Source of the DNA: a phage
NCBI GenBank assembly: GCA_024613925.1
Contig: GCA_024613925.1_4713.1
Length of the DNA: 64,000 bases
Direction: 5' to 3' (one strand)
Below are positions 1,351-64,000 of the stretch, in pieces; the stretch's first letter is position 1; the number at the start of each line of letters is the position of its first letter. The notes under the pieces were generated by a model. That model was given only the letters and a program-made list of their open reading frames with translations. It had not been told where the DNA came from and did no database searches. The position numbers and the translations under genes were made by a program.

Positions 1351-2445
1351 ATGTTTCGTGTTTTAAATAACCTCCCGCGAACATCATCGGGTGTGCAACC
1401 CGTCCCTCAGAAAGACTATCTAATACGCGAAGTTCAAAGAAACCTACAGACAATCCAGAACCACTATCAAGGTTTTACCTTCGCGGTTCAGAGCGATCAC
1501 ATCCTTGCGTTGCTGCTCGCACAGCTCCCTATGAGATACGACATCTCAGTACAAACTTACTACGACATGATTCTCGATCTTACCCCAGAATTGGGTAATC
1601 GTGTCAAGTTGACAACATCAAGATACGCGGGTAAGTTATTCGACGGTGCTTTCTATCCGGGATTGCACGAAGCTATTATCGCAACCGGTGAAAGTCGTCT
1701 TATTTCACGTGACATTCTTGACAACTGGCGTAATTGGTCGCCGGTTAGAATCGTGACGCACCCGTACGCAAATCTTCGTTACATTCCTCTTCACCGAAAG
1801 CCGGTTGAAGAAGGACGAGGTTTTGCGGTCATTATGGTTGATGTACCTTTATTAGCGCTACAGTATCGAATGTGGTCTTTGGTCATGGGTCATAACGTCG
1901 ACGGTAAATGGGTGGTTAAAGAACCGGTTACAAGCTTCCTTGCGAGTTTTCCGTTGGTTAACGCATTATACTCACACAACGATGTTGTTATACGCAATCG
2001 TTGTTTATGGGTATCTCCGGCTAAGAATCCACTCAAATCACCCATTTACGTTAACGACCTTGATAACGTATTCAGCCAAGTCGTTCTGTCCGTACAGCAT
2101 CATTTATTACGCAGAAGACGAAGCTACACCGACATGCTTAAACAGATACCGAGTTTATACGGGGATCAGTACCAAGCAACCCGAATGGGTTACACCGTCG
2201 ATCTTCGACAAACACGATGGGCAAGGGATCTGGGTTGTCTGTCATTATGGCAACAACTCGTCACATTGCAAAACGTATCTGAAAGCGTCGGGTTCAGCAG
2301 TCAAGTCGATAATGACCTGTACCGTGCTGCCGACCGGAGTCTAAAAGAAGGTAACTGGGAATCCTCTCCGTTACCTGGTGATTTAAGACGTGAAGTTATC
2401 GCACAGGTTGCCGACCTCTTAAAAATTCTTCCTGCTGGTGCATAA
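1351..2445 (+). CDS. hypothetical protein (364 aa)
   Basis: ORF with GGAG RBS 5 nt upstream of ATG; followed by hairpin terminator. Confidence 0.55.
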   Translation: MFRVLNNLPRTSSGVQPVPQKDYLIREVQRNLQTIQNHYQGFTFAVQSDHILALLLAQLPMRYDISVQTYYDMILDLTPELGNRVKLTTSRYAGKLFDGAFYPGLHEAIIATGESRLISRDILDNWRNWSPVRIVTHPYANLRYIPLHRKPVEEGRGFAVIMVDVPLLALQYRMWSLVMGHNVDGKWVVKEPVTSFLASFPLVNALYSHNDVVIRNRCLWVSPAKNPLKSPIYVNDLDNVFSQVVLSVQHHLLRRRRSYTDMLKQIPSLYGDQYQATRMGYTVDLRQTRWARDLGCLSLWQQLVTLQNVSESVGFSSQVDNDLYRAADRSLKEGNWESSPLPGDLRREVIAQVADLLKILPAGA

Positions 2446-2450
2446 TCACC

Positions 2451-2508
2451 TCCCTCTTCCCTCGCATCCTCCCAACCCGTAAGGGAAGGGAGGATGGGGT
2501 GGTGGATT
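2451..2508. terminator. GC-rich nested hairpin (core ATCCTCCC-AACCCGTAAGGGAA-GGGAGGAT), bidirectional terminator between convergent genes
   Basis: Perfect 8-bp stem plus inner CCC/GGG pairs and GTAA loop; 36-nt core identical to 63941-63976. Confidence 0.55.
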
Positions 2509-2511
2509 ATG

Positions 2512-4665
2512 TTACTCTGCGGTTTCTCGCTTCGGTAAATAACTTGCTGCGATGTCTTGGGCTAACAATGTATTGTTTTTATTCGAGATGAAAATACCGT
2601 AACTTTCCATTAACGCGTAATACGAACGAACGAGCGTAGAGATCAATCGACGAATATCCATACCTTGAATAAAGATATCAGGAAGCCCGGAGGCTTCGAT
2701 CACCGGTAATGGTATCGTTAAGTTGCTTATCGTTTTCTTATCGTTACGTACAATCCAATCACGGAAACGTTGTTGTAACCCTTTATCCTCCCAGGAATCA
2801 ATCCAATCGTTAAGAAGCGTTTTGTTCTTCGTCGCCAACGGCACACGAACCCCAACATAGGGTGGTTCCTGGCAATGGCCGTACGATTGAGCAAACACCT
2901 CTTCCCACATATCGTAAGACTGTTTCGTTACCGCAACATGTGGTTTCACTTTAACACGTGTTAAGAAATCAGGATCACCACGTTTCATGGACTCAACGAT
3001 TTCGTTTTCTAACGAGATAATATCGTCAAGAACCAATCGAATGCTGATCTTCTCATTACGTAACAGCTTATCCATGATACCGCACATCATGCGTTCAACA
3101 CGTTTGACGATCATTTTTGGTGCTGACGCATCACGCATAACCGGACCTTTCAATTCCAGCTTCGGTGGATTGATAGGAACCCCTTCACGCATGGTCATGT
3201 AACCGTAATAGTTTTTACCCATCGAGGTTAACGACAGAATCAAGAACATATATTCGTTCTTCATTTCCATCACGTACATATGCTCTTTCGCTACACCGAT
3301 ATTACCAGAACACATCGCCATCAGATGAACCGTAATCTGCGTAACCAGATAGATAAGCGTGTTTGCTAAGCGCGTCGAAACTGGATTGATCTCCATATTT
3401 CCAAATCGCCACTGAACCCACTCCTGGCAGGTAAACACCGTCGAGTCGGTATCAGACAACACGCCCACTTCACGGATTGCCGACGGAAAAGCATAAACGC
3501 CAGCCGGTTGGTTCTCGGTACGCCAGAACGCCATAATCAAGTCAGCATAACTTTGGATGCGTTGCAGCATTAATTTTGTTGTTGCTGCGGTAAGACGATA
3601 ACCAAGCTCATTTCCTTTTTCTAGCGCTACGTAAATCGCTTCCCCATTCAAGAACTCCGTGCATTGTGCTGTAATCCAAGCGACCGTGTTGTTATCCATG
3701 GAAGCAATAATGGCTTTAGCCTCTTCCATCGTTTCAACAGGTTCGGATGCCAGCTCACACAACGAGTCAAGAAAATCTCGAACAAATTCAGGATTAAGCT
3801 CACGTAACGAGTACAGGTTATTGCTGTACATGTAGCAGGCGCGTTCCAACGGCGTTAAACCGGTAATTAACTCCCGGATAGTCAGTTCTTTCTCTGGGTC
3901 GAAAGTATACCGATGTAAGCATTTCGATACGTTAGCCCAAACCTCTTCCGGCGTAGGGTAATGCAGTTTGTATTTTACCATTACCTGCTCAATGGCTTTA
4001 CGATCGCTGTTACGGACGATGCTTACGATGTTTTCAATTGCGATATCACAATCGTAATAATGGAAATTGCCCGCAAGGAAGCGTTCGTTGTTCGCATTGG
4101 CTGAACCTGAAGCACAGCGACATGTTGTCGTTAGACTCGGATGCGCAATCGGATTATAAAAAGGGTTGAACTTGGACGCCTGGGTTCCTGACAAACTGTT
4201 GTTGTCTAACTTGGTGTTGGTTTGTCGTTTATCGTGTAGCTCCGCTTCGTCTTTACGTCCGTGTGCTTGCGCTATCGACATTTGTTTCTTTTGTTTCTTA
4301 CGCAACTTACCGTTTTCAACCGCAAAGTCGCTTAGCACACTGGAACGTGTTTCACGTGGATAACAGTTAGCCCACACCGGCGTGATAATTAAATTATTTT
4401 CTTTAATATCGTTGAAGTATTGGCTGAACTTGATGACTTCTTTTTCTCGATTTCCTTCGGTACGCTGCGTTAGTACAAGGCAGTCGGGATCAACCATCCC
4501 GTATTTTCCACCAGGACGAACCGTTTCAAGAACAAACTGCAACGCTTCCTGCTGAGATATCCCACGCATGCGCATTAAGAACAGGGTATAATCCTGTACC
4601 GCTTCTTTGGTCATATCCAACGTACGACCATATCCGTTTTCATCGTAAAAGAACGGATTTTCCAT
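2512..4665 (-). CDS. hypothetical protein (717 aa) with DTDS motif; possible divergent polymerase/nucleotidyltransferase-like
   Basis: Long ORF, GGAGG RBS; motif GVLSDTDSTVF at about residue 405 and KNYYG about 80 aa later; no clear motif A aspartate. Confidence 0.55.
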   Translation of the reverse strand: MENPFFYDENGYGRTLDMTKEAVQDYTLFLMRMRGISQQEALQFVLETVRPGGKYGMVDPDCLVLTQRTEGNREKEVIKFSQYFNDIKENNLIITPVWANCYPRETRSSVLSDFAVENGKLRKKQKKQMSIAQAHGRKDEAELHDKRQTNTKLDNNSLSGTQASKFNPFYNPIAHPSLTTTCRCASGSANANNERFLAGNFHYYDCDIAIENIVSIVRNSDRKAIEQVMVKYKLHYPTPEEVWANVSKCLHRYTFDPEKELTIRELITGLTPLERACYMYSNNLYSLRELNPEFVRDFLDSLCELASEPVETMEEAKAIIASMDNNTVAWITAQCTEFLNGEAIYVALEKGNELGYRLTAATTKLMLQRIQSYADLIMAFWRTENQPAGVYAFPSAIREVGVLSDTDSTVFTCQEWVQWRFGNMEINPVSTRLANTLIYLVTQITVHLMAMCSGNIGVAKEHMYVMEMKNEYMFLILSLTSMGKNYYGYMTMREGVPINPPKLELKGPVMRDASAPKMIVKRVERMMCGIMDKLLRNEKISIRLVLDDIISLENEIVESMKRGDPDFLTRVKVKPHVAVTKQSYDMWEEVFAQSYGHCQEPPYVGVRVPLATKNKTLLNDWIDSWEDKGLQQRFRDWIVRNDKKTISNLTIPLPVIEASGLPDIFIQGMDIRRLISTLVRSYYALMESYGIFISNKNNTLLAQDIAASYLPKRETAE

Positions 4666-4726
4666 AAATCCTCCAAAAGTTATTTAGTCTGTCTACATCA
4701 TCTCGTATATCTGTTAAAAAAGAAGG

Positions 4727-4740
4727 ACGGCATAAAAAAG
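4727..4740 (-). promoter_or_regulatory. TATG-class promoter-like motif (sense CTTTTTTATGCCGT) immediately 3' of a terminator hairpin
   Basis: Motif T(T)TATGCCG recurs five times (4727, 8776, 25338, 31082, 52201), each 20-85 nt upstream of a minus-strand start. Confidence 0.4.
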
Positions 4741-4768
4741 AACCGATCCAGCCGAAGCCAGATCGGTT
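4741..4768 (-). terminator. hairpin (AACCGATC...GATCGGTT) followed by T-tract on minus strand
   Basis: 8-bp perfect stem, then CTTTTTT on the minus strand. Confidence 0.5.
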
Positions 4769-4965
4769 AAAAAAGGATAATAACTGACAGAAAGATATCG
4801 ATGATGTTCGTGAAACAAGATCTTCTCTCGTGCACAATGATGCTAGATCAGAGGGAGGTTGTAACACGAGAGGCGATTCGCCAAAGAAGGAATAAAAAAC
4901 ACGAATCTATCTTATTTCACTGATGGCACTAACCACTCAAAATATATAGTACTGTATGTAAAAGT

Positions 4966-5379
4966 TTACTGATTAATCAAGTCGTTAGCAACAATCTTGG
5001 TGTAACCTGCCTGATTAAGAATTTGATTAATTTTCGTCACGTCGGTCGCATCCTCAATAACGATGCTGGGTTTATAGATCAGCGTCTTGGTAACGACGAT
5101 TGTACTCTCCTTAATCCAAGGAATCCCTAGAATCACATACTCGCCATCAGCTGTGATGACCTCGACGTAATTGTATTTCGTCGGATCGTTCGGTACACTG
5201 GACGGGAGCCGGGAATAAATCTGTTGATGAATAGCGTCTACATCACGGCCGTTGCGCACAGCCGTACGATAGTTGTACACGGCACTAATTTCTACTCCGT
5301 TGAAGTTAACCCCAAGTTCTGGGGCGTACACATCAAAACTCACAACAGAGCCAATCTTTTCTAAATCAGAAGCTGGCAT
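4966..5379 (-). CDS. hypothetical protein (137 aa)
   Basis: ORF in co-directional minus-strand array. Confidence 0.5.
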   Translation of the reverse strand: MPASDLEKIGSVVSFDVYAPELGVNFNGVEISAVYNYRTAVRNGRDVDAIHQQIYSRLPSSVPNDPTKYNYVEVITADGEYVILGIPWIKESTIVVTKTLIYKPSIVIEDATDVTKINQILNQAGYTKIVANDLINQ

Positions 5380-5390
5380 AATAGCATCCT

Positions 5391-5912
5391 TTATTTAAAA
5401 ATGTATTCGTATCCGAAGGTCGTCGCCGACCAGACCCGGATAGATGATAGTGTTCCGCCACGATAAAACGTTTTTGTGAATTCCATATCCTGGGCAACAC
5501 GATAATAAACACGTCCGATAATACGCACGATAAGGTTTCGTGATAACGATCTCTCCTCGCAGTATTCATCGATAAAGTCATCGTCGATATCCGATAAGAC
5601 AACATCTGCAATTTCTTGCAGTAGATTCCTCATCAGCATCTGCCTTCCTTCGGTACCCCACCCAGACAAACAGTAATCGTCTTCTGCCTGACTATAGATG
5701 TCGTTAACCGTCTGTTCGAGCAGTTGCTCAAGATAGTAGTCATCGCGTTTTATAACGTGGCGACGGCGCTCAGTGGCGTATTTTTCCATCCTGTGTTTCT
5801 CTTGTTCGGCGTATGTATTAACGACGCCACAGTCTTTTCTGGATCGTCCCACAATGCACGACGAAAACTGGATACTACCATAACGGTAGGATAGATTTGT
5901 ACAACCTCCCAT
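5391..5912 (-). CDS. hypothetical protein; start uncertain (alternative ATG at 5789)
   Basis: ORF overlaps upstream gene 5750-6238 in another frame; true start is probably internal. Confidence 0.35.
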   Translation of the reverse strand: MGGCTNLSYRYGSIQFSSCIVGRSRKDCGVVNTYAEQEKHRMEKYATERRRHVIKRDDYYLEQLLEQTVNDIYSQAEDDYCLSGWGTEGRQMLMRNLLQEIADVVLSDIDDDFIDEYCEERSLSRNLIVRIIGRVYYRVAQDMEFTKTFYRGGTLSSIRVWSATTFGYEYIFK

Positions 5913-6238
5913 CCGTAACGATGTGCGTTAGTCGTACGTCCGACATTGAACAGACATAACTGATTTAAGAAACAGAGCTGCATCTTCGTAAACAACACCC
6001 TGTCTTCACGTTTAACGTATCCGAGGATATACGCATTCTCGAACGCCTCGCGTGACAAGACGGGTCGATTAAGATACCGTAACGCTAGTACCAACAACGT
6101 TGTTATACGCAACGGATCTTCTGGGTCATTCATGGTGCTCAGCTCTGCTTGTAACCAGTCAGGGATAGTAACCGTCAGGCGATAGGTATCTGTTCCACGA
6201 TCAACCACATTCAATGTTGAAAAAGGCAACATATCCAT
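5750..6238 (-). CDS. hypothetical protein (162 aa)
   Basis: ORF with AAGGA RBS 8 nt upstream of ATG at 6238. Confidence 0.5.
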   Translation of the reverse strand: MDMLPFSTLNVVDRGTDTYRLTVTIPDWLQAELSTMNDPEDPLRITTLLVLALRYLNRPVLSREAFENAYILGYVKREDRVLFTKMQLCFLNQLCLFNVGRTTNAHRYGWEVVQIYPTVMVVSSFRRALWDDPEKTVASLIHTPNKRNTGWKNTPLSAVATL

Positions 6239-6776
6239 GAATTCCTTCTAGCTCGAGGTTGTTCTCGCCGGTCTTCGGTAATAACCCACTGGCCGTTAAC
6301 ATCTGCGTCATCGAGTAGTCAAAGCACGGAAATATCAGGTTAACGGTTTCCTGGATCGCGTCAACATAACTATAAATGGCTTCATAATACTCACCGTCAT
6401 GATCTACGCTAACCAGTTCCTGACACAGTTCTTCGCTTATCATTTCATATACCGGCGGATACCACGATTGAAATGGTCGCTGCATACGTAACGACCAGTA
6501 CTCATACGTCGTATACTGAAGCACGTCATATGCCGATACGTTAATGCGGTCGAAGAAAGCATACTTGTCCATATGCTGATACAACATCGCCAGCACGGTT
6601 TCCAAGCACACCGATATCCGCACGCCGTCATCTTTCCCGTTAAGAAAATTAGGTTTCTGCCGATAACGCACAAATGCCGACGGCTTTGATTGCATTATTC
6701 CACCACCAACCATAACGTCATACTCGTATCTAACGTAAAATTGAAATGCCACCAATCTTCTACACGTGGAACCCAC
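6201..6776 (-). CDS. hypothetical protein; start may be ATG at 6695 (TAATG coupling with upstream stop)
   Basis: ORF; N-terminal 27 codons overlap the 3' end of ORF 6695-7378. Confidence 0.4.
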   Translation of the reverse strand: MGSTCRRLVAFQFYVRYEYDVMVGGGIMQSKPSAFVRYRQKPNFLNGKDDGVRISVCLETVLAMLYQHMDKYAFFDRINVSAYDVLQYTTYEYWSLRMQRPFQSWYPPVYEMISEELCQELVSVDHDGEYYEAIYSYVDAIQETVNLIFPCFDYSMTQMLTASGLLPKTGENNLELEGIHGYVAFFNIECG

Positions 6777-7378
6777 GTACGAAGGATTTGGTTAACTTCG
6801 CTTCGCATCACCGATAAACGACAACGAAAGTCGAACTTCTCATCATGGCCGTAGTCTTCATGCATGAAAACTTCATCCAGAACGAACTCAAGTTGCATGT
6901 CGACATCACGGCCAGAGATATTCCGTTTGTACAAATACAACTCAATCGTGTCGTAAAGCAACGTATGAATATCATAATTTCCGTTCGGTGAGAAATAAGG
7001 TAATCGCTCATCGAGCATCGAAAACAGATATTCACTGTAGTTTAATAACGGGATGATGTACCGACGCCCTGTCTGTGGTGTGCGAATATGTATCGAAACC
7101 TGACTTGGGCGCGGAATAACCGATGGCTTAGAATCGTCTCTCTGAAATTGCTCTAAAGATCGCAACAAAGGTGGCCGCATTGTAACTCTCCAACGCCCAA
7201 TTGTAAGGCCCTTCCAACATGTGTTCCCATACGTGAATAAACTCACTACCGAAGACAGGCTCCAGCGCCATGGTGAGATTCGTAAGTTCTGACGCGGCCG
7301 CATGGTAAGCATCAACATGTCTTTCCATTGACGGATCGTCTTCATTGAAAATACGTTCTGTATCGCCAGCCCGTTCAA
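6695..7378 (-). CDS. hypothetical protein; N-terminal part doubtful
   Basis: C-terminal 100 aa look protein-like; N-terminal half is W/R-rich and overlaps ORF 7128-7757. Confidence 0.35.
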   Translation of the reverse strand: MNGLAIQNVFSMKTIRQWKDMLMLTMRPRQNLRISPWRWSLSSVVSLFTYGNTCWKGLTIGRWRVTMRPPLLRSLEQFQRDDSKPSVIPRPSQVSIHIRTPQTGRRYIIPLLNYSEYLFSMLDERLPYFSPNGNYDIHTLLYDTIELYLYKRNISGRDVDMQLEFVLDEVFMHEDYGHDEKFDFRCRLSVMRSEVNQILRTWVPRVEDWWHFNFTLDTSMTLWLVVE

Positions 7379-7757
7379 TAAGTTCGGTAATGAGATCTGT
7401 CCATGTCTCGTGACACGTCATCATTTCCTGTTCTCGACTTAGTATGCCGATGTCTGCGTGGACGCTGGACTCGAACCGGTCTAAAAGGACCCGAAGAACG
7501 TGCACCTTGTCGATGTATTTCACCGTTATCCAAGAAAGCGGTTGCCACCGACTCAGCATCCATCCGGTACTCGGGAACCCCAAACTCATATAGTACGGGT
7601 TGCACCGGACCGAAGACGGAGCGGCGTTGTTTAAATCGCTCCTTAAGGGCAAGGCCTTGTTTAATATAAACGGGTTCATTGGCGAGTTGTTCCGCTTTTC
7701 GTTTTGCGTGAGCCAATCGAAGTTCTTCCAATTGCCCAAGCCATTCAAATTGTTCAT
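7128..7757 (-). CDS. hypothetical protein; alternative-frame ORF, start uncertain
   Basis: C-terminal 130 aa look protein-like; overlaps both neighbours in a different frame. Confidence 0.3.
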   Translation of the reverse strand: MNNLNGLGNWKNFDWLTQNEKRNNSPMNPFILNKALPLRSDLNNAAPSSVRCNPYYMSLGFPSTGWMLSRWQPLSWITVKYIDKVHVLRVLLDRFESSVHADIGILSREQEMMTCHETWTDLITELIERAGDTERIFNEDDPSMERHVDAYHAAASELTNLTMALEPVFGSEFIHVWEHMLEGPYNWALESYNAATFVAIFRAISERRF

Positions 7758-8352
7758 CTGTTAGCTCCTGGGGACGTTCAACAATCGCGCCAGACGGGCA
7801 GATATTGATCGTAATGTTAATTGACGGCATCGCCATCACTCGAGGATTACTATTACGTACGCGGACAACGTGTTCGGTTGCTGATTTACGATCGACGCAA
7901 TACTCTGTTTCTTGGAACTCAAATGCTTTTAACGGCGTTGGTTTTGTTTGACGTTTAGGAACGCGGCCAAGATCAACAATATAGGCATAATCGCACACAC
8001 GTTCTATTCCGTAAATACGGTTATCCGACCAGTTCTTACCAAACAGCTTATTGTGATGATAAGACAGATATTCGGTTACCATACCCTGGACAACATCGAA
8101 GTCTTCTCGAAATTCAGGTTGGTACCAAATCGGGCCGAGAATATCTGCGAACGATTCATGACGATATCGAGGATCATGTCGAGTCCAGGTCATTCTCTGA
8201 TTAAGATCGAAATCCACCAACAACTCGGTTAATTGCAATTTTTCCTTCGGAGAAAGCTGGCGTTGATGATGCAAACTCAGACAATCGATAAGCGGTAATG
8301 AAACCCACGATGCTAATGTGTACAAATCGATCCTGGCTAATCTCTTGGTCAT
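7375..8352 (-). CDS. hypothetical protein (325 aa) with Arg-rich C-terminal tail
   Basis: Long ORF; ATGA overlap with downstream ORF start at 7378. Confidence 0.5.
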   Translation of the reverse strand: MTKRLARIDLYTLASWVSLPLIDCLSLHHQRQLSPKEKLQLTELLVDFDLNQRMTWTRHDPRYRHESFADILGPIWYQPEFREDFDVVQGMVTEYLSYHHNKLFGKNWSDNRIYGIERVCDYAYIVDLGRVPKRQTKPTPLKAFEFQETEYCVDRKSATEHVVRVRNSNPRVMAMPSINITINICPSGAIVERPQELTDEQFEWLGQLEELRLAHAKRKAEQLANEPVYIKQGLALKERFKQRRSVFGPVQPVLYEFGVPEYRMDAESVATAFLDNGEIHRQGARSSGPFRPVRVQRPRRHRHTKSRTGNDDVSRDMDRSHYRTY

Positions 8353-8442
8353 ACTCTTTTCCTAAGTCCCCATTGTTTATACACACGATATCTGGGAATA
8401 GTTAAAATATACGGCGTAAACGAAGCAGGAGAGTTTCTGACG

Positions 8443-8763
8443 TCATTTTCTCCCTCTTCGAATACCACCGATACCTCTTTCGTCTAAGACGTCCCAAGCA
8501 CGCTTTATTTCATCCTCCGTTGCTCTGGTATCTGGAGGGACAACCATAACACAGTCGTGGAATGGCCAATGTGCGGGTCTGGGGCTCGCGAACAAATCAT
8601 CCCATTCAAATGTCCATTCTTTCTTTGAGCGATTGTAGTAGAGCGTAAGGTACGTGTTGGTATACGCTGGATAACCACGCATAACTTCAATATCCTTACG
8701 ATCCCGCCGTTCCTGATCCCAATCGTTAAACCGCTTTCTTATTTTCTCCCACCACTTTCCCAT
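8443..8763 (-). CDS. hypothetical protein (106 aa)
   Basis: ORF with AGGAG RBS; TATG-class motif 20 nt upstream. Confidence 0.5.
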   Translation of the reverse strand: MGKWWEKIRKRFNDWDQERRDRKDIEVMRGYPAYTNTYLTLYYNRSKKEWTFEWDDLFASPRPAHWPFHDCVMVVPPDTRATEDEIKRAWDVLDERGIGGIRRGRK

Positions 8764-8775
8764 GCTTTCTCCTAC

Positions 8776-8787
8776 GCGGCATAAAAG
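8776..8787 (-). promoter_or_regulatory. TATG-class promoter-like motif (sense CTTTTATGCCGC)
   Basis: Same motif family as 4727-4740; lies between hairpin 8787-8806 and the gene start at 8763. Confidence 0.4.
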
Positions 8788-8806
8788 CCTGCCCCGAAGG
8801 ACAGGC
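8787..8806 (-). terminator. hairpin (GCCTG..CAGGC)
   Basis: Imperfect stem-loop directly downstream of ORF 8817-9017. Confidence 0.35.
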
Positions 8807-8816
8807 TCGATAGAAC

Positions 8817-9017
8817 TTAACGACCATCCAATTTCAATGAAGGATGGTTGACGATATGTGCGTGTTTTGCTGGGTCATATAGCTGATATGGAAAATAGCC
8901 ATGCCATTGACGGCCTTGGCATTTCGTACACAGAAACTGACCAACACCTTGTCGATTCTCGTAAGCGAGTTCGGTACTATCAACATGTTCGCAACGTTCG
9001 CAGATAAACAGCGACAT
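8817..9017 (-). CDS. small zinc-ribbon-like protein (66 aa)
   Basis: Two CxxC pairs (CERC...CTKC). Confidence 0.45.
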   Translation of the reverse strand: MSLFICERCEHVDSTELAYENRQGVGQFLCTKCQGRQWHGYFPYQLYDPAKHAHIVNHPSLKLDGR

Positions 9018-9054
9018 AGCGCATCCCCATTCACTTGAACCTTTTGGTTCGGCA

Positions 9055-10035
9055 TTAGAAAAGCAAGAAACCGCTATTCTTCGCTTCTGCTACAGTTTCG
9101 TCACCGACTTTCGGTGCTTGTTGACGTGCGTTACGGTGTTCGATGTAACGTTTCGCTTCGTCCGCGATTTGTTTGATAATACCCCCTAAACGATCAGTAC
9201 TTAAAACAAACGACGTCGCTTCACGAATTGGGCTGCTTTCAGGCACAAAACCATCGCAGCTGTAAATAGCGCTAACGCCCATGACTTTTGTCGCGTCTTT
9301 CGGATAAAGCGTACAGAAAGCAATCGGGCTATCGTTCTCTTTCGTCCAATCGTATCCCATGAACGTATTCAGTTCGGTGATCGTTGGTTCCAAACCGGTA
9401 ACACGTGGATGGTTTAAGAAGTTTTCCAGGTCAGCGCTGTCAAGACGGCGGTTCTCGCCAGAAAACAGAACACAAAGCTGGCTGATAACAACCTGCACGT
9501 CCAGGTTGACATCCTGCTCCGATTTCCCATTTTCGCCATTCATGTGATAGCTAACAATCACTGGACGTTTCAACCCTTCTGCAGCTGCCATCAGTCCTTT
9601 GAAGGTGCGATCGGCGTTGATCGTTTGACGCTCATCATCGAACGAGGCAACGATGCAACACACCACACGTTCACCGCGTTCCAGCAGGTTAGCAACCAAC
9701 GCAGGACCGGCAACAGAACCTGAACCACCGCTCAAACTAAAGACCACGATATTAAATTTACCTGGCGTATGCTTATTGAGAATACCTGGGATTTGTGAAC
9801 AGATCAGTTCAGCGTTCTCGTCACGCTTCTTACCAGAACCGTCTAACTCACGACCGGCTGCATCTTTAAAGATGTAAATATGATCGTCGCCCAGTGTGCT
9901 ATCGCGTAGGTTAGCGCGGCTGGTATCGACATACGTCATGCTGTGTAATCCTTTCGCGACTTCGCCTTCAAATGCCGAGCCGATTTCGCCACCACAACCA
10001 CCGACAGCCCAAATATGTACTTGGTTCTCTTGCAT
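9055..10035 (-). CDS. phuZ: PhuZ-type phage tubulin/FtsZ-like GTPase (326 aa)
   Basis: N-terminal VGGCGGEIG (FtsZ/tubulin T1 loop, GGGGxN-like) and SLSGGSGSVAGP (tubulin signature GGGTGSG-like); size matches PhuZ; AGGAG RBS. Confidence 0.8.
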   Translation of the reverse strand: MQENQVHIWAVGGCGGEIGSAFEGEVAKGLHSMTYVDTSRANLRDSTLGDDHIYIFKDAAGRELDGSGKKRDENAELICSQIPGILNKHTPGKFNIVVFSLSGGSGSVAGPALVANLLERGERVVCCIVASFDDERQTINADRTFKGLMAAAEGLKRPVIVSYHMNGENGKSEQDVNLDVQVVISQLCVLFSGENRRLDSADLENFLNHPRVTGLEPTITELNTFMGYDWTKENDSPIAFCTLYPKDATKVMGVSAIYSCDGFVPESSPIREATSFVLSTDRLGGIIKQIADEAKRYIEHRNARQQAPKVGDETVAEAKNSGFLLF

Positions 10036-10045
10036 GTGAACTCCT

Positions 10046-10061
10046 AACTTAATATGTATTT
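10046..10061 (+). promoter_or_regulatory. promoter-like motif AACTTAATATGTATTT
   Basis: Near-identical motif (AACTTAATATGTTAAT) in sense orientation upstream of minus gene start 14005 (plus coords 14029-14044). Confidence 0.3.
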
Positions 10062-10099
10062 AACGCACAATGAATCTTTCTTTGCTAAAGGGGTGACCC

Positions 10100-10942
10100 A
10101 TGGGTGCTATTGACTACAGTGTAGATCGTATCTGTCGTACAATACCGGCAGATATCCTACAGTATTGCTATATCGATCGTTACGACTGGCGTAATCGCTA
10201 TCCTCGTTCCGTAGAAGACATCATTACCGATTGGGTAATCCGTAAACGGGTTATCGGCGACATCGATATCTACGGGGGACTACAAACCGTTATCCCCCTT
10301 GATGATGCAGGTGTCACTATCGAAGAAGTCACCATTAACTGTTATGTTTTCCACATTCCGTTGGAAGCCACGCAAGGACGTTACATCACGTCTGCATTAT
10401 CCATTATTTCAGGGAGCGTGAACAACTACGGAATAAACTATAACGGGCAATGGGGTGCTTTCAACCAAACCCAGTTTCAACGTCAGCTTTGTGGGTGGAA
10501 CCCCGCAAGCAACACGTTACAGCAAGGGATGAACGCATTCGGTCCCATGAACGTTCTTAGTACAGCCAACGTTGATATCATCGCCCCTAACACCATCATG
10601 GTGAACAACGTCACGCCTGTACAATTTCCCCTGAGTCTACGTTGTTTCCTTGCCCACGATCCGGAACTTACCAACCTCAGCATGGAGGTTTGGAACGACT
10701 TCTACAAACTCTGTTTATACGCCACACAAAGCGACATCTACAACAGAACCGTTATCCGTCTTGACAGAGGTGTTACAGCACAAGGACAAGAAGTCGGTGC
10801 ATTCAAGGAATACATCGATCGCTTTGCTGATGCTGAAAACACATATCAGGAATTCCTGAACGAAACGTGGGCTGGCGTTGCTGCCTGGAACGACCCACAA
10901 ACTAAACGTCGCGCCATTCGATTACAAACCGGTTACTTCTGA
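10100..10942 (+). CDS. hypothetical protein (280 aa)
   Basis: ORF divergent from phuZ; RBS present. Confidence 0.55.
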   Translation: MGAIDYSVDRICRTIPADILQYCYIDRYDWRNRYPRSVEDIITDWVIRKRVIGDIDIYGGLQTVIPLDDAGVTIEEVTINCYVFHIPLEATQGRYITSALSIISGSVNNYGINYNGQWGAFNQTQFQRQLCGWNPASNTLQQGMNAFGPMNVLSTANVDIIAPNTIMVNNVTPVQFPLSLRCFLAHDPELTNLSMEVWNDFYKLCLYATQSDIYNRTVIRLDRGVTAQGQEVGAFKEYIDRFADAENTYQEFLNETWAGVAAWNDPQTKRRAIRLQTGYF

Positions 10943-11466
10943 TTAACAACAGCTTCCTCCCTCGGTGTTTTCGAGGGAGGTATTTGCCGTTTGAACACTT
11001 TCAGCACGTTCGCAAAATCAGCAGCAATAATACAGGCCGAGGCTGATAGCTTATTGCTGAAAATGAGATCGTCCGGTAAACAATCGAACTGAATACCATA
11101 TTGCGTCTTTGTCTCATCAACGATCAGTGACGGTGTCGATCCTGTCTTCGCGATGTCGGTGATATACAAACGTAAAAATAATTCACCGTCTTCGCTATCC
11201 ATAAAACGATAGGCGTTACCAGAAAACGCAACACTTGGCGTAACGATAAATTGAACACGATCGTCGGTCGGATGGATATTTAACCAACGTTCGATATCAC
11301 TGCTACTCACATTCCGCATATTTACTACGGTAAAAGCAAATAGCGTATCGTGATGTTTGGAATAATGCAGCACATACGCCGCACCTTTCTTTTTGTGAAT
11401 CCCTTCAATGTATTCTATTGTCGTATAGCCGGATTTATATAGCTTTACTTGCGGTTTATCACTCAT
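10933..11466 (-). CDS. hypothetical protein; start set at ATG 11466 (TGATG coupling)
   Basis: Track ORF runs to 11550, but the internal ATG overlaps the stop of upstream gene by 1 nt. Confidence 0.45.
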   Translation of the reverse strand: MSDKPQVKLYKSGYTTIEYIEGIHKKKGAAYVLHYSKHHDTLFAFTVVNMRNVSSSDIERWLNIHPTDDRVQFIVTPSVAFSGNAYRFMDSEDGELFLRLYITDIAKTGSTPSLIVDETKTQYGIQFDCLPDDLIFSNKLSASACIIAADFANVLKVFKRQIPPSKTPREEAVVNQK

Positions 11467-11765
11467 CATAACAACCCTTCCCGTTTCATCGCAGCACGCA
11501 TACTTGCGTAAAGCGCATTCTTCATTGCACCTGGACGCAACGGATAACAAATCTCATATCGACGTCCTTGTTTTACAGCAATTTTCCTTCCGTTCAGAAA
11601 CAACGTACCATTATCCAGCAACAACTCACCTTGTAGTACCATGAGTCCTGCTTTAACATGACGTCCTTCTTCTTTCGTTAAGACCTTATAGCCGTGTTTA
11701 TCCAATAACCACAATTCGTAGATACCATGCGCAGCCTTCGGCATTACTTTCTTCTTCGTCGTCAT
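11466..11765 (-). CDS. hypothetical protein (99 aa)
   Basis: ORF in co-directional array. Confidence 0.45.
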   Translation of the reverse strand: MTTKKKVMPKAAHGIYELWLLDKHGYKVLTKEEGRHVKAGLMVLQGELLLDNGTLFLNGRKIAVKQGRRYEICYPLRPGAMKNALYASMRAAMKREGLL

Positions 11766-11777
11766 GGAAGATCCTCC

Positions 11778-12152
11778 TTAAACTCCTTGTCGGATCATCA
11801 CCAACCGGAGCATGTTGTATTCCAATGTAGCGCTTTCTAATTCGAATTCATATCGATACCAGAAATTCGGCTCTAATTGACCTACAACACATTTACGAAC
11901 ATCTGTCTGCACCTTCCTCGACAACACCTGTAACAGTTGTGTTATCTCCGGCTTGAAGTAATACGCCAAACCTAACTGATCAGAATAAAACAGGCCACAA
12001 TCAAAGATGGCCTGTAAAATAACATATTCAACCATCAGGTGACGCGCATCGGGGTCAGGGAATGGTGAACGTAAAGCGAGATCTAACACATCGACAATTG
12101 GGCCGACATAAATGGCGGCACGGTACTCACGAATAACACTGATGTTATCCAT
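11778..12152 (-). CDS. hypothetical protein (124 aa)
   Basis: ORF in co-directional array. Confidence 0.45.
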   Translation of the reverse strand: MDNISVIREYRAAIYVGPIVDVLDLALRSPFPDPDARHLMVEYVILQAIFDCGLFYSDQLGLAYYFKPEITQLLQVLSRKVQTDVRKCVVGQLEPNFWYRYEFELESATLEYNMLRLVMIRQGV

Positions 12153-14044: not shown

Positions 14045-14306
14045 TAAAAGAGGTTATGTTTTACGTCATATTCGATGTATGTATTAATGAATTAGAATAC
14101 TTGTATTTTTAAGTGAGTATAATAATAGTAATAAACCTAAATTAATCTCTATTGCTTATTGTTCTATCTAAAGATAGTAAACAGATATAATGCTCCCCAC
14201 CTCCCCATTCTCCCAAGTAATACTGGCCTACCGGCCCTCTCCTTTTTAAGGGAGAGAGTAAGCATTCAGTATTGCTCAAATGAATAAGCAAAACAGTATA
14301 AACTTA

Positions 14307-14330
14307 CCGTCTCGAGATAACTCGAGACGG
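14307..14330 (-). terminator. perfect hairpin CCGTCTCGAG-ATAA-CTCGAGACGG
   Basis: 10-bp perfect stem 30 nt downstream of the stop of gene 14360-14713; T-rich on minus strand afterwards. Confidence 0.5.
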
Positions 14331-17195: not shown

Positions 17196-17347
17196 CAATG
17201 TAACGGTAAAACTTTACTGACGTTGGTTATTATTTGAAGCATAGGGCTTCACCCAGGAGTACCATCCCTTTAAGTCGTTTGTCCTCTCCTGGTTAACTGT
17301 CGTTCTCTCACAGTGCTCGACAGACCAAAAATGCTCAGGCCTCATAG

Positions 17348-17376
17348 CCTCCTCTGGGAATGGAACCCAGAGGAGG
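17348..17376. terminator. hairpin CCTCCTCTGGG-AATGGAA-CCCAGAGGAGG
   Basis: 11-bp perfect stem between convergent genes 15957-17195 (+) and 17389-17709 (-). Confidence 0.5.
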
Positions 17377-17388
17377 ACTATGTTTGCC

Positions 17389-24395: not shown

Positions 24396-25323
24396 GGCAT
24401 GCCTCCAGGAGGTATTTCATGTTGGCTTGGAAATCATTGACGTCACGCGCCATACGACGCTGATCCGCCATGAGACGAGCCAACACGGTATCACGGTAAC
24501 CACGATCGTGGTCGGCAGCAGAGCATAAAAGAATAAATGTTGGTGGATGCTCTAAAGCAATCCCAGCAACTTCTTTACTATAACCCCCAACCCAACTGTA
24601 AGCGGTGATTTCAAACAACAACGCCTGGGTTAACGTGTTCAAACGGGGACTAATATTACTTTCTTTTAATGCTGTTACGAAAGCTGCCATGTTAGGGATA
24701 TAACCCAGGTTTTCGGTTACGATACCGATGCTCGCAAAATCGTAACGAAGCGTTGTCTGGATGGTGCGCACCATAGTTAGTCTTTCATTATTTGTAAGGC
24801 TATCTTTAAACAAGCAAAGATAATACCATGCTGTTATGATGGCAACATCACGACGTTGTTGAAGGTCCAGCCCTAAACGTTGTGTGATTTGTCCGCTAAT
24901 CCAATCACAAAAGACACGCATCGGGATAGGGCCAAGACGTTCAAAAGGACGTGTGCCCAAGGATTCCCATCCTACCTGAAGATACGCACGTGATTGAAGA
25001 AAGTTATATTCACGTTCGTTAACAACGGTAGTACGCGATCCTGGGCGTGAAGTATCTGTTGGGGTGCGTGCGTAAGCGCGTTGGTCGATAACAACGCGCT
25101 GTCCGTCCATCACTGTTTTAATGACCAACGGATGGCCGAAAGAAGGGATATCGTCCAACGTATTTTTGTTGCCGATGACTTCGAGAACGGGAGTGTTTAC
25201 GCCACTTTCTTCACCGGGTGCACTTAACAATCCGCCGACGTAAGCAACTTCGATAGCGGTTCGGATACGGTCAATGCCTTTTAGTTTTGTTCCAACAGTT
25301 GTGTCGTAAGGAGAGATGAACAT
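24376..25323 (-). CDS. hypothetical protein (315 aa)
   Basis: ORF; TATG-class motif 22 nt upstream. Confidence 0.5.
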   Translation of the reverse strand: MFISPYDTTVGTKLKGIDRIRTAIEVAYVGGLLSAPGEESGVNTPVLEVIGNKNTLDDIPSFGHPLVIKTVMDGQRVVIDQRAYARTPTDTSRPGSRTTVVNEREYNFLQSRAYLQVGWESLGTRPFERLGPIPMRVFCDWISGQITQRLGLDLQQRRDVAIITAWYYLCLFKDSLTNNERLTMVRTIQTTLRYDFASIGIVTENLGYIPNMAAFVTALKESNISPRLNTLTQALLFEITAYSWVGGYSKEVAGIALEHPPTFILLCSAADHDRGYRDTVLARLMADQRRMARDVNDFQANMKYLLEACRGVERF

Positions 25324-25337: not shown

Positions 25338-25351
25338 TTACGGCATATAAG
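25338..25351 (-). promoter_or_regulatory. TATG-class promoter-like motif (sense CTTATATGCCGTAA)
   Basis: Motif family member upstream of gene start 25323. Confidence 0.35.
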
Positions 25352-27554: not shown

Positions 27555-28445
27555 ATGCGTCCTGATAATACCCTACTCGGTGAACAGGGTGTTGGTGCTC
27601 TTAGCAACGCGGCTATGGTCGATATTCGTGCGGGTGCCCAAAACGGGTACATCAGCAATATCGGTACGTACGTTGCTAACGCCAACTACATTCCGAACCA
27701 AATGTTCTGTCTCCTGCTGGAGGCACCACGTGGTTTCAACTATCTACCTAACCCGGATGTACAGATTGGTTATCTGAAGGCGCTGGTAGAAGAGGTTGCG
27801 CATTCGATTACCGGTCTGCAACGCGGACTGGAAGTTGAATTCGTTAGCGTCCCGGTTTCTGGTTCCGGTGAAATCCAGGAAGAAGTCTCTGACGTTAAAC
27901 GTCCTCGCTCTAACCCGACTTTCGGGATCTATGAGAAAGAAGGTCGTTCCGTTAGTTACTTCCTGGAACAATGGATCACGTATCTGTTGATGGATCCGGA
28001 TGCCAAATATCCGATGTTGTCGTCTATCGTATCCACCGGTGGTCCAACCGACCTGCTGGCGGATTATCGTAGCGCAACAATGCTGTTCGTTGAGCCAGAC
28101 CGTCAACACAAGAAAGTGGTTAACGCCTGGCTGTGCACGAACATGATGCCTCACGGTACCGGTGACTGGACATCACGTCGTAACAAGAACGATGCGCCAA
28201 ACGTGGTAGAATTGAGCATTCAGTTCACTGCGTTAACACAGACCAACTATGGCGTGCGTGCTTTTGCACAACGTCTGCTGGATAAGATGAACCTGCTTAA
28301 AGTGAACCCGGATTTCCGTCCGGCTTATCTGAGTGACATCGATCCGGCTGTGGCAGCGCAGAAGGTTGGCTATACCTTCGACTTTGATAACAACGATACC
28401 TTTGAGGTACCGAATACTTATCAAAACGTAACACCTCGCGTGTAA
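27555..28445 (+). CDS. putative tail tube protein (296 aa)
   Basis: Tightly coupled downstream of the sheath-like gene; GAGGAG RBS; terminator follows. Confidence 0.4.
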   Translation: MRPDNTLLGEQGVGALSNAAMVDIRAGAQNGYISNIGTYVANANYIPNQMFCLLLEAPRGFNYLPNPDVQIGYLKALVEEVAHSITGLQRGLEVEFVSVPVSGSGEIQEEVSDVKRPRSNPTFGIYEKEGRSVSYFLEQWITYLLMDPDAKYPMLSSIVSTGGPTDLLADYRSATMLFVEPDRQHKKVVNAWLCTNMMPHGTGDWTSRRNKNDAPNVVELSIQFTALTQTNYGVRAFAQRLLDKMNLLKVNPDFRPAYLSDIDPAVAAQKVGYTFDFDNNDTFEVPNTYQNVTPRV

Positions 28446-28468
28446 CGTAAAAAAAAAAAGCATATTAA

Positions 28469-28509
28469 CCTCCCTTCCTTCCCTAGCCGTCAAGGCCGGG
28501 GAAGGAAGG
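28469..28509. terminator. GC-rich nested hairpin CCTTCCTTCCC...GGGAAGGAAGG flanked by A-tract (plus) and T-tract (minus)
   Basis: 11-bp stem with inner GCC/GGC; between convergent genes. Confidence 0.55.
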
Positions 28510-28521
28510 TTTATGGTTTAT

Positions 28522-30176: not shown

Positions 30177-30212
30177 TTAGGTAATATAGACCTCAACTTT
30201 TTTCCAATAATG
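30177..30212 (-). promoter_or_regulatory. early-promoter-like element (sense CATTATTGGAAAAAAGTTGAGGTCTATATTACCTAA)
   Basis: Second copy of the 35-nt element; overlaps the last codons of gene 30193-30993. Confidence 0.45.
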
Positions 30213-31081: not shown

Positions 31082-31095
31082 GACGGCATAAAAAG
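31082..31095 (-). promoter_or_regulatory. TATG-class promoter-like motif (sense CTTTTTATGCCGTC)
   Basis: Motif family member immediately 3' of hairpin 31098-31123. Confidence 0.4.
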
Positions 31096-31097
31096 TA

Positions 31098-31123
31098 CCT
31101 CCTTACCCACATGGGTAAGGAGG
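31098..31123 (-). terminator. hairpin CCTCCTTACCC-ACAT-GGGTAAGGAGG
   Basis: 11-bp perfect stem followed by T-tract on minus strand. Confidence 0.5.
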
Positions 31124-31275
31124 TTCGTCCATCACGACGAAAGGACGTTATGTGACGCGGTGTCCATAACGGCCCTGGTAGCAGGCATTAAAGATAACAA
31201 AAAGGATGTAAGTTGAGCTAAACCACCTAAATACGGTAACGATTACTTCCGTACACAATATAACGCAACATCTTT

Positions 31276-35365: not shown

Positions 35366-35466
35366 TCACTTTTCCTTTTAATGTCAGAGCATCGCATTCT
35401 TGACGTACGTCAAGAAGGTATTGCGTTCAGCGAAATAAACGAGCAGGGGCATGAAGCCCCTTGCTC

Positions 35467-51048: not shown

Positions 51049-51063
51049 TATTCACTGCATAAA

Positions 51064-51097
51064 CCCCCTCTCCCTTCCCTGATGGGTTGGGAGAGGG
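51064..51097. terminator. GC-rich nested hairpin CCCTCTCCC...GGGAGAGGG
   Basis: 9-bp stem with inner CCC/GGG; between convergent genes. Confidence 0.5.
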
Positions 51098-51103
51098 ATT
51101 ATG

Positions 51104-52171
51104 TTAACCTAATGTCACCGTAGGTAAATCAGGATAAAGTTTCTTCAAGCCTGCCATCGTGGTGGTAGTTGTATAATTCTTACCCATCACAGCAAGAGAT
51201 GCGTATTTCCTACTGCGGGAGAAAAGGGAATAGAACCCACTGGATGTTTCCATCCACATCGTGAGGAGTTCTGCATCATTACCGTGATAGTTCGTTTTAC
51301 CCCATCCGGGTTTAAACGCATCGGCAAAATCAATTAAACGCGAGGCTTCAGCGTCGTATTCTTTAAGGGTAAGGTACGATGGGATACGGTAGTTACGGAA
51401 CAGTAACGTAATGAGTTCAGGGACAACGCTACGGGCACGTTCAGCCGTAATGAGTTCGGTGATAACAGCAGCTGTACGGAAATCGCCGTTAAGACCAACG
51501 CTGCTTAACGATTCCGCTAAAGTGGTTGCCATCGCCACTTTATCCTCCGCTGACCCAGAGTCATACAGACTACGTACATCGATATAGTTGCCTGCTAATG
51601 CGGCTTGACGAATCAACGACGTGACAACCGTCCGGTTCGTCTTATAGTCGTTGTAGCTGAATTCGGTTCGCGTTTTCCCTTGATCCTCGAGATACCGATC
51701 AACAATCGTCGACAGTTTATAATACTCATCGCCAGACATCAGACTATCGAGAAGCTTAACATTTCCATCTTTATCGATAAGCTTCCCTAACGCACCATTG
51801 GATTGCTGGTTAATGGTGCTGTAAATCTGGTCTTTTACTTGCGATAGGATGTTATCGGTTGACGATATATTCAGGCCAGTAACATCTTTGATCTTATTCA
51901 TCAACGCGTTTTCATTCAGGGAGATTTTGCCTCCGCCGATATCGATGAAAGAATTAAGATCGCTTATGGAAATCAGGTTTCCTGTTAACGCCGATAATGT
52001 ACTATTGATACTGTTCGTAATACTGCTACGAAAACTGGTTAACGCATCCGCCGCCGAAACAGCGGTACCGCTAACCGCTTTAAGGAGCGTATCACGCCCT
52101 GTCGAAAAATCGCTGGTGATGGTTTTGATCTTGGACGTATCTATACTCGGCAGTTTGTCGTAAAGACTCAT
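51104..52171 (-). CDS. putative structural protein (355 aa from ATG 52171)
   Basis: AGGAGG RBS 6 nt before ATG 52171 (track start 52222 overlaps hairpin and is rejected); S/T/N-rich. Confidence 0.5.
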   Translation of the reverse strand: MSLYDKLPSIDTSKIKTITSDFSTGRDTLLKAVSGTAVSAADALTSFRSSITNSINSTLSALTGNLISISDLNSFIDIGGGKISLNENALMNKIKDVTGLNISSTDNILSQVKDQIYSTINQQSNGALGKLIDKDGNVKLLDSLMSGDEYYKLSTIVDRYLEDQGKTRTEFSYNDYKTNRTVVTSLIRQAALAGNYIDVRSLYDSGSAEDKVAMATTLAESLSSVGLNGDFRTAAVITELITAERARSVVPELITLLFRNYRIPSYLTLKEYDAEASRLIDFADAFKPGWGKTNYHGNDAELLTMWMETSSGFYSLFSRSRKYASLAVMGKNYTTTTTMAGLKKLYPDLPTVTLG

Positions 52172-52200: not shown

Positions 52201-52211
52201 ACGGCATAAAG
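52201..52211 (-). promoter_or_regulatory. TATG-class promoter-like motif (sense CTTTATGCCGT)
   Basis: Motif family member between hairpin 52211-52236 and gene start 52171. Confidence 0.4.
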
Positions 52212-52236
52212 CCTACCCACACAATGGTGGGTAGGC
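52211..52236 (-). terminator. hairpin GCCTACCCAC-ACAATG-GTGGGTAGGC
   Basis: 10-bp perfect stem downstream of gene 52254-52766. Confidence 0.5.
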
Positions 52237-52253
52237 TAAGATCAACATCGATG

Positions 52254-58439: not shown

Positions 58440-59282
58440 ATGCATAAATTTACCATTCCTGAAGACCCGATTACACTGCAGACCCTTTGGGATTCACATC
58501 GTGCTTTATCAATGGAAGGCTTTGCGCAAGACTTCGCTTCACTTACCGCAGTAACGAACCTTCGTAGTATGTTTACTAACGGTAAGAAGTTTGTTACCGA
58601 CTGGCTTAAGAAACGTGATGAGACGGTTTATCCTAAAGTCTTCGATGACCTCGATACCATCTTTAGCAACAACGCTTACAGCGATCTCATTGGGTATCGC
58701 GCTTTTATTCCGAATGGTTTAAATGCGCCGATGTCAGATTATGTTGTTGCTTTAACCCAGAGTCTGGATAGCGTAATTGGCACCATCCTACCTGATTTGG
58801 ATAAGTTGACCGTAACGTGCGCTAAAGCCGTCAATGACGTCAACTTCCGTCGTAGTAGTGGTATGGCTCAAACGCTACCTAAAAACGACCCAGAGAACGT
58901 TCTAGAGACGTTACGTGCGATGTTCAAACAAGGGACGGTAACACAGACCACTGTAGGCCGTGCATATAAGAACGAAGACGATATTCGTCAGATCGGAAAA
59001 GATCTGGATGCTTCCCGTATCCGTGCGCTTGACGTTAATCCTAAAGACGTGAAGAAGGCAATCGAACGTTTCATGGAGGTGGCTGACCGTTTAACCGAAA
59101 TCCTGGTTCAAGACTACAACGAAGGTGCAGTGAGCAACGCGATGATTCGCGATATTAGCGACGCTATCTACCAAACAGCCAAGCAGGCCGAACTGTATGC
59201 GTTTCTCGTGAACGCGTTGGCTGAGGCGATCATCGCATATAACGATACCTGGGACGCCGTTAAAAAGAACGCGAAAAAATAA
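58440..59282 (+). CDS. hypothetical protein (280 aa)
   Basis: ORF with GAGGA RBS; terminator hairpin follows. Confidence 0.55.
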   Translation: MHKFTIPEDPITLQTLWDSHRALSMEGFAQDFASLTAVTNLRSMFTNGKKFVTDWLKKRDETVYPKVFDDLDTIFSNNAYSDLIGYRAFIPNGLNAPMSDYVVALTQSLDSVIGTILPDLDKLTVTCAKAVNDVNFRRSSGMAQTLPKNDPENVLETLRAMFKQGTVTQTTVGRAYKNEDDIRQIGKDLDASRIRALDVNPKDVKKAIERFMEVADRLTEILVQDYNEGAVSNAMIRDISDAIYQTAKQAELYAFLVNALAEAIIAYNDTWDAVKKNAKK

Positions 59283-59290
59283 CATAATAA

Positions 59291-59327
59291 CCCACCCTAC
59301 TACCCCGTTAAGGGCGGTAGGGTGGGA
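59291..59327. terminator. GC-rich hairpin CCCACCCTAC...GTAGGGTGGG
   Basis: 10-bp stem between convergent genes. Confidence 0.5.
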
Positions 59328-63986: not shown

Positions 63987-64000
63987 TTATGCCGTCAAGC

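Follow-up and report, generated by a model that had tools for sequence, protein, structure and literature searches.

Terminators with a conserved sequence beyond the hairpin have been described in phiKZ, in which ONT-cappable-seq yielded 61 terminators with the consensus 5'-BCCYCCCCHWWDGGGRRGGBYTTATKYYGT-3' (Putzeys et al. 2024, PMC10914365). Motif A of 201phi2-1 (n = 59) is closely similar to it, and eight 201phi2-1 terminators were functional in a terminator trap (PMC11512511). The 3' part of this consensus can be read as TATG, the tetranucleotide that also forms the core of the phiKZ late promoter, where its G is the +1 position (Yakunina et al. 2015, PMC4666361). In that role, the non-template bases T-3 A-2 T-1 G+1 are bound by a pocket of GP123 (PMC12809450). 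The design of a hairpin followed by a box is already known from phiKZ and 201phi2-1; what is new here is a member from the genus Goslarvirus.

The DNA analysed is a 64,000-nucleotide stretch of a phage contig (hereafter, the window). Over 8 kb (positions 4000-12000), it was 98.1% identical to Escherichia phage vB_EcoM_Goslar, and the window corresponded approximately to 171.8-237.3 kb of that genome. Judged by this similarity, its source is a Goslar-like, nucleus-forming jumbo phage of the Chimalliviridae. According to its annotation, Goslar encodes chimallin, PhuZ, and the split RNA polymerase (RNAP) subunits of the phiKZ type, both virion and non-virion multisubunit, and its gp039 aligns with phiKZ gp123. 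Boxes of the YTTATKYYGT type stood directly 3' of stems in the window and in Goslar. The identity to Goslar together with this fit to the phiKZ consensus places Goslarvirus among the phages with the known kind of terminator. We conclude that the loci are most likely phiKZ-type intrinsic terminators, in which the box belongs to the stop signal and is not the promoter of the next gene; for Goslar, terminator function would follow from the homology of the signal to that of phiKZ.

Five minus-strand copies of the motif had been listed in the earlier note: CTTTTTTATGCCGT (4727-4740, with TATG of the box at 4734-4731), CTTTTATGCCGC (8776-8787), CTTATATGCCGTAA (25338-25351), CTTTTTATGCCGTC (31082-31095), and CTTTATGCCGT (52201-52211). 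All five sequences were found at these coordinates and on this strand. The 9-mer TTATGCCGT, an exact fit to TTATKYYGT of the phiKZ consensus, occurred six times in the window, compared with a mean of 0.58 and a maximum of three in 100 dinucleotide-preserving shuffles. When one mismatch was allowed, the window contained 22 copies versus 16.4, which was not significant, as 14 of the 100 shuffles reached 22. This loose search was rejected as being at chance level, and only the exact 9-mer and its hairpin-linked form were regarded as significant. The list of five was real but incomplete, as a plus-strand copy, two coding copies, and TATG boxes without CCGT had been missed. The placement of the copies upstream of start codons was borne out, although over a slightly wider range (~12-89 nt) than the 20-85 nt given before.

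At four of the five loci, a stable hairpin preceded the motif as claimed (-18.3, -18.0, -22.8, and -20.7 kcal/mol; z -3.4 to -5.2), CTTT(T)TATGCCGY followed it directly, and the T-run of the hairpin indeed merged into the motif. The hairpin AACCGATCTGGCTTCGGCTGGATCGGTT at 4741..4768 (minus strand; -18.3 kcal/mol, z -5.2), a putative terminator in the Goslar annotation, lies between ORF 4966-5379 and the DNA polymerase gene (2512-4665) that follows it. Hairpin GAGCCTGTCCTTCGGGGCAGGCTT at 8785..8808 (minus strand; -18.0 kcal/mol, z -3.4), also present in the Goslar annotation, is followed by the box TATGCCGC at 8776..8783 on the same strand, with CTTT before it. Hairpin ACCTCCTTACCCATGTGGGTAAGGAGGT at 31097..31124 (minus strand; -22.8 kcal/mol, z -4.1) is retained, with an inverted loop, by both Goslar and a 91%-identical relative, and carries the box ACTTTTTATGCCGT at 31083..31096 (minus strand). 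The fourth, AGCCTACCCACCATTGTGTGGGTAGGCT at 52210..52237 (minus strand; -20.7 kcal/mol, z -5.0), is followed by TATGCCGT at 52201..52208 (minus strand). T-runs of T3-T6 followed the hairpins at these four loci, so the U-tract feature of host-type terminators was present there, and all four are annotated as generic or putative terminators in Goslar. The AUG of the box was also considered as a start codon, and this was rejected: at 8776 it is out of frame, and in Goslar it coincides with an annotated start once (49772).

Two further exact copies of TTATGCCGT, at 35104-35112 and 35224-35232 (both minus strand), lie 120 nt apart and lack hairpins. They fall in coding sequence, within ORF 33609-35132 and in the region upstream of that ORF. 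These two copies are probably due to chance or driven by coding.

Beyond the listed loci, the window contained more sites of the same kind, which brought its total to 10 hairpins with 14 hairpin-plus-TATG boxes; Goslar contained about 50. The stems in the window were GC-rich, with folding energies of -18 to -40 kcal/mol and z of -3.4 to -5.5. On the plus strand, a compound CCTCC/GGAGG hairpin at 63931-63986 (-40.2 kcal/mol, z -4.1) was followed by the box TTATGCCGT at 63987-63995; in the Goslar counterpart of this site, the next gene, across the record ends, is convergent. A bidirectional compound terminator at 2437..2515 lies between the convergent ORFs 1351-2445 (+) and 2512-4665 (-), folds at -38.6 and -37.6 kcal/mol, and carries the boxes TATGTTAC (2508-2515, +) and TATGCACC (2444-2437, -). 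The three other bidirectional terminators occupy 17339..17386 (hairpin 17348-17376; TATGTTTG at 17379-17386 on the plus strand and TATGAGGC at 17346-17339 on the minus strand), 28457..28519 (hairpin 28473-28509; TATGGTTT at 28512-28519, plus, and TATGCTTT at 28464-28457, minus), and 51054..51107 (hairpin 51066-51097; TATGTTAA at 51100-51107, plus, and TATGCAGT at 51061-51054, minus). The stem at 28473-28509 was retained in the 91%-identical relative despite an inverted apical part. At 59279..59326, in a convergent context, the hairpin 59291-59326 carries a box on the minus strand only (TATGTTAT, 59286-59279). The boxes of these five sites (2440-2512, 17348-17376, 28473-28509, 51066-51097, and 59291-59326) contain TATG without CCGT. 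Two variant terminators were found on the minus strand, one at 35425..35466 (hairpin 35441-35466, then GTTTATTTCGC), in which T replaces the G of the box (TTATT), and one at 14290..14330 (hairpin 14307-14330, then TAAGTTTATACTGT), in which A replaces it (TTATA).

At 2440-2445, as at other convergent terminators, the gene on the opposite strand takes its TAA stop codon from CATAA, the box in reverse complement. Because CATAA doubles as a stop codon, the stop, the hairpin, and the box are packed into ~70 nt between convergent genes.

For a whole-genome census, we used Goslar (237,307 bp, 247 CDS). A finder of GC-trimmed core stems was used, because folding entire 3' UTRs drew the flanking CATA...TATG into the stem and masked the box. 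This finder missed a few hairpins (e.g. 31097-31124), and the Goslar counts are therefore lower bounds. Among the 4-mers in the first 10 nt past strong intergenic hairpins, TATG was the most enriched (8.7-fold). The words most enriched in intergenic DNA were of the CCCTCC/GGGAGG type (25- to 120-fold), T-runs, and TTTATGCC. Where a strong hairpin-strand marked the 3' end of a co-directional gene, TATG was located 0-9 nt past it in 47 of 83 cases (57%), compared with 4/33 in the antisense orientation (12%) and 7/137 inside genes (5%). The last G:C pair and the box were separated by 1-3 nt in 35 of the 47 cases, and the positions after TATG were preferentially C (30), Y (39), G (27), and T (25) in this set of 47. 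The possibility that TATG is a mere extension of the stem was rejected, since tandem terminators lack CATA on the 5' side, as the antisense rate of 12% reflects.

The genomic context of the boxes was informative. Convergent or absent next genes gave a rate of 22/35 (63%), and tandem genes 25/48 (52%). This equal or higher rate in the convergent context means that the box belongs to the 3' ends of transcripts, not to the 5' ends of genes. In convergent pairs, a single palindromic hairpin flanked by CATA...TATG provides a box for the transcript of each strand, and the stem often consists of the repeated unit CCCTCYTCC-TTCCC-TTAC-GGG-TTGG-RGGAGGG. Most copies in convergent contexts had zero to two T residues before TATG, and a U-tract of 4-8 nt was absent from them.

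These context data bear directly on the arrangement proposed in the earlier note, in which a terminator is fused to a TATG late promoter and the polymerase, after terminating, re-initiates at the G of the box for the next gene. The statement that TATG is the core of the phiKZ late promoter was correct, and each of the five listed boxes precedes a co-directional start codon by 12-89 nt, as such a promoter would. The CYGT segment was also somewhat better kept in tandem contexts: the G at position 6, three past the G of the box, was present in 19 of 25 tandem and 8 of 22 convergent copies. This bias could reflect an extra function toward the downstream gene or a coding constraint from the opposing gene. 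However, the 22 convergent hairpin-strands with a box have no co-directional gene downstream that a late promoter could drive; in the window, this holds for the boxes of 2437-2515, 17339-17386, 28457-28519, 51054-51107, and 59279-59326. In addition, TATG alone is insufficient for initiation by the non-virion RNAP (nvRNAP; PMC4666361), the model late promoter p119L (...TTGCTATGtagacag) lacks both a hairpin and CCGT, and the genes downstream of the listed loci, which encode DNA polymerase and small hypothetical proteins, do not belong specifically to the late structural class.

Mapped RNA ends of phiKZ served as a proxy for the Goslar-type loci. We used the tables of transcription start sites (TSSs) and termination sites (TTSs) from the bioRxiv supplement for phiKZ 1-150 kb; the entries covered were the TTSs up to T076 and the TSSs other than P127-149, and all phiKZ counts below refer to this part of the tables. 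A same-strand TTS lay no more than 3 nt from the box G in 17 of the 55 phiKZ hairpin-plus-TATG boxes, and no more than 8 nt from it in 19. By contrast, every published TSS was more than 3 nt away from the G of each of the 55 boxes. In phiKZ, the boxes thus coincide with mapped RNA 3' ends, and mapped 5' ends are absent from them. The nearest TSSs lay at +6 (at a second TATG, 94330) and then at +25 to +58, and the promoters that follow phiKZ terminators are separate early, middle, or late elements 6-58 nt downstream. TATG was found within 8 nt of 27/66 TTSs (41%) as well as 34/79 TSSs (43%), versus 6.3% of random positions, a symmetry that by itself suits re-initiation. The offsets from the G were -1 (8 sites), +1 (7), and +2 (6) for TTSs, and 0 (16) and +1 (13) for TSSs. 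The G was not obligatory, as TTS-supported phiKZ terminators with TTATA or TTATT exist; the K of the consensus stands for G or T.

Taken with the convergent copies, the phiKZ start sites contradict the box as a site of re-initiation, a reading that we regard as unlikely. A looser form of the terminator-promoter module does occur in phiKZ, where a distinct promoter stands ~20-60 nt past the terminator; the fused form did not hold up. The identification of the hairpins as terminators was supported.

The locus at 25338..25351 (minus strand) differs from the other four. Its CTTATATGCCGTAA, which contains TATGCCGT, has no hairpin (z +0.7). It precedes ORF 24376-25323 by 20 nt, in the divergent promoter region between this ORF and the tail-sheath gene; this single locus is what one would expect if the box could serve as a promoter. 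The syntenic region of phiKZ contains the late promoters P009 and P010. Locus 25338 is not a terminator; it is a candidate late promoter. In divergent regions of Goslar, candidate promoter TATG was present upstream of 12 of 20 genes, and the sequence after it was unconserved and without CCGT.

A second intergenic motif, approximately TTTCACGGCTATATTACYTAnGTGA, was found 39-131 nt upstream of co-directional genes, including that for chimallin. It occurred three times in the window, at 1167-1176, 30179-30188, and 53368-53377 (all minus strand), versus 0.16 expected, and on the Goslar minus strand at 2567, 113797, 142800, 160791, 166069, 172978, 201944, and 226695. Its core TATATTAC matches the early (virion RNAP) promoter of phiKZ, and on the basis of this match the copies are probably early promoters of Goslar. 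A group I intron (Rfam, 56.2 bits, E 1.4e-11) at 36724-37091 (minus strand) splits the virion-RNAP beta-like gene of the window into ORFs 35467-36597 and 37087-40296. The Goslar gene is uninterrupted, and an intron and an HNH gene lie at a neighbouring site. Since the placement differs from Goslar, intron content varies between phages that are 98% identical.

The repeated unit of the convergent stems belongs to a dispersed repeat family, a near-identical 32-nt hairpin used as a terminator stem in ~20 copies in Goslar. Copies include those at 27746-27777, 48107-48138, 49776-49807, 61009-61040, 63715-63746, 71990-72021, 93445-93476, 224384-224415, and 237246-237277 of Goslar, among others, and those at 51066-97 and 63945-76 of the window. 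Close relatives (91-98% identity) were too alike for covariation analysis, and only loop inversions were visible among them. Loops and apical stems differed by exact inversion: window 31108-31113 differs from Goslar as ATGT from ACAT, and at 28488-28500 the window has CTAGCCGTCAAGGCCGG where L011, the 91%-identical relative, has its reverse complement. Comparison of these sequences suggests that such differences arise from flipping of the palindrome centre and not from point mutation.

The ~20 near-identical copies raise the question of whether the loci are host-type rho-independent terminators whose flank is functionless and was merely carried along when a repeated hairpin module was copied. 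The T-runs and generic terminator annotation of the four listed loci would suit this explanation, and 201phi2-1 terminators work with host RNAP in the trap assay (PMC11512511). Nevertheless, the box is found after numerous stems of unrelated sequence, a T-run is lacking in many copies (e.g. GGAGGAGGG-t-TATG), and the antisense rate of 12% shows it to be strand-specific. The box is also kept between genera whose proteins are only ~29% identical, and E. coli hairpins lack it: in a 50-kb K-12 control analysed by the same pipeline, TATG followed 3 of 83 hairpins and was not enriched. We therefore consider a purely host-type origin very improbable.

We compared chimalliviruses by applying an annotation-free test of 4-mers after hairpins to GenBank records. 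TATG was the top 4-mer after strong hairpins in phiKZ (7.4-fold) and, together with ATGC and TGCC, in an Ea35-70-like phage (6.4-fold). In KpLz_1_41, TATG tied with TTAT, both at about 5-fold, and in an Elvirus it ranked below TTAT (3.2-fold versus 4.1-fold). The terminator box of phiKZ is thus conserved in Pseudomonas, Escherichia, and Ea35-70-like phages, and less sharply in an Elvirus. This conservation across chimallivirus lineages argues that phage RNAPs, and not the host enzyme, read the box.

TATG/CATA was under-represented in the genomes as a whole. On the sense strand of Goslar coding sequences, 730 copies were counted versus 1057±25 after synonymous-codon shuffling. With a Markov ratio of 0.70, TATG was the lowest non-palindromic 4-mer in the window and in 4 of 5 chimallivirus genomes; in phiKZ, its depletion ranked ninth of all 4-mers. 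The ratio in E. coli was 0.81 versus 0.70, so only part of the depletion is phage-specific and the support it gives is weak.

A third explanation places the function of the box in the RNA, as a cleavage or 3'-maturation site, or as a protein-binding tag for stability or export from the nucleus beside a protective hairpin. ONT 3' ends do not separate termination from processing or 3' trimming, and primary 5' ends were absent at the box in the phiKZ tables, as they would be for cleavage products. Chimalliviruses must also export mRNA and encode RNA-binding proteins. On the other hand, CYGT would be outside the mature RNA, given that phiKZ transcripts end between -1 and +2 relative to the G; moreover, no ChmC binding motif was found, and a hairpin with a U-rich segment is the geometry of intrinsic termination. 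We think it quite unlikely that the box acts at the RNA level. With the mapped 3' ends at UAU|G, the RNA stops before or at CYGT, and this suggests a role at the level of the DNA or the polymerase.

Returning to phiKZ-type intrinsic termination, each terminator pairs a GC-rich hairpin, which may have an ordinary stem or the repeated CCCTCYCC...GGRGAGGG, with the box (T)TATG-C-Y-G-T 1-3 nt further on. The transcript of the upstream gene most likely ends in or next to TATG, whichever strand is transcribed; in convergent pairs, one palindromic hairpin has a box on each side, and the promoter of the next gene, where needed, is a separate element further downstream. In the mechanism that we infer, UUAU may provide a weak hybrid, and Y-1/G+1 with the downstream CYGT may act as a pause or release element on the phage RNAP, so that G would occupy the i+1 site of a halted polymerase while the hairpin forms over the UUAU hybrid. 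This hold may use the same non-template TATG pocket of the beta-like GP123 that sets +1 at late promoters.

A dual use of TATG by the nvRNAP, in which the promoter pocket of the beta lobe also captures TATG during elongation, once a hairpin has formed behind the enzyme, and sets the release point by holding the late-promoter register with G at i+1, is a tentative idea that we consider possible but doubtful. In Goslar gp039, 7 of the 14 pocket residues are identical, 2 are conservative, and 5 differ, against an overall identity of 29%. The replacement of the box G by T or A, in TTS-supported phiKZ terminators of the tables covered and in variants of the window, weakens a strict TATG-pocket model. 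If dual use were true, termination would be partly sequence-specific and read by a promoter-recognition module, which would account for TATG at ~40% of both phiKZ starts and ends and for the avoidance of TATG. In the literature searched, we found no paper linking the terminator box to the promoter TATG and no mechanistic account of termination by these sigma-less polymerases.

Short sequences that halt an enzyme at a fixed register are known elsewhere. The class II signal of T7 RNAP (ATCTGTT) is a sequence-specific pause and termination signal read by the polymerase, sigma70-dependent pausing occurs at -10-like elements, and the elemental pause consensus of multisubunit RNAPs is Y-1 G+1. The likeness of these three signals to the box is one of analogy only. 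In one of these cases, the signal is read by a promoter-recognition module, and T-1/G+1 of the box fits Y-1 G+1. Unlike those signals, the chimallivirus box is always accompanied by a hairpin, and pausing at TATG is proposed here by analogy.

The hairpin with its box provides a terminator signature for Goslar-type E. coli jumbo phages, with ~50 sites genome-wide. It is more specific than generic hairpin-plus-T predictors and helps to define operons in a model phage for the phage nucleus. The match in register between starts (at the G) and ends (-1 to +2) also leads to a testable hypothesis on how sigma-less polymerases terminate.

Compared with a canonical rho-independent terminator, the sites share the GC-rich hairpin, the U-rich segment, and 3' ends a few nucleotides past the stem, and the four listed hairpin loci would pass as such terminators. 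They differ in that many copies have a short U-tract or none, in an invariant A, and in the G and CYGT beyond the release point. With the phiKZ late promoter (PMC4666361, PMC12809450), they share the tetranucleotide, with phiKZ transcripts starting at the G and ending at -1 to +2 of it in the tables covered. However, the TATG of phiKZ-type promoters has no upstream hairpin and no conserved CYGT, whereas terminator boxes have no mapped TSS in those tables and also occur where no gene follows. The closest systems are the terminators of phiKZ and 201phi2-1. From these, the present sites differ in their E. coli host and genus (Goslarvirus), in a sharper box that prefers G and C (TATGCYGT), in the longer repeated unit that forms many Goslar stems, and in that the signal is known here from sequence. 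In common with them, the sites have a GC-rich stem, often CCYCCC...GGGRGG, followed by YTTATKYYGT, lie at gene 3' ends, are bidirectional at convergent pairs, and belong to phages with multisubunit RNAPs of their own.
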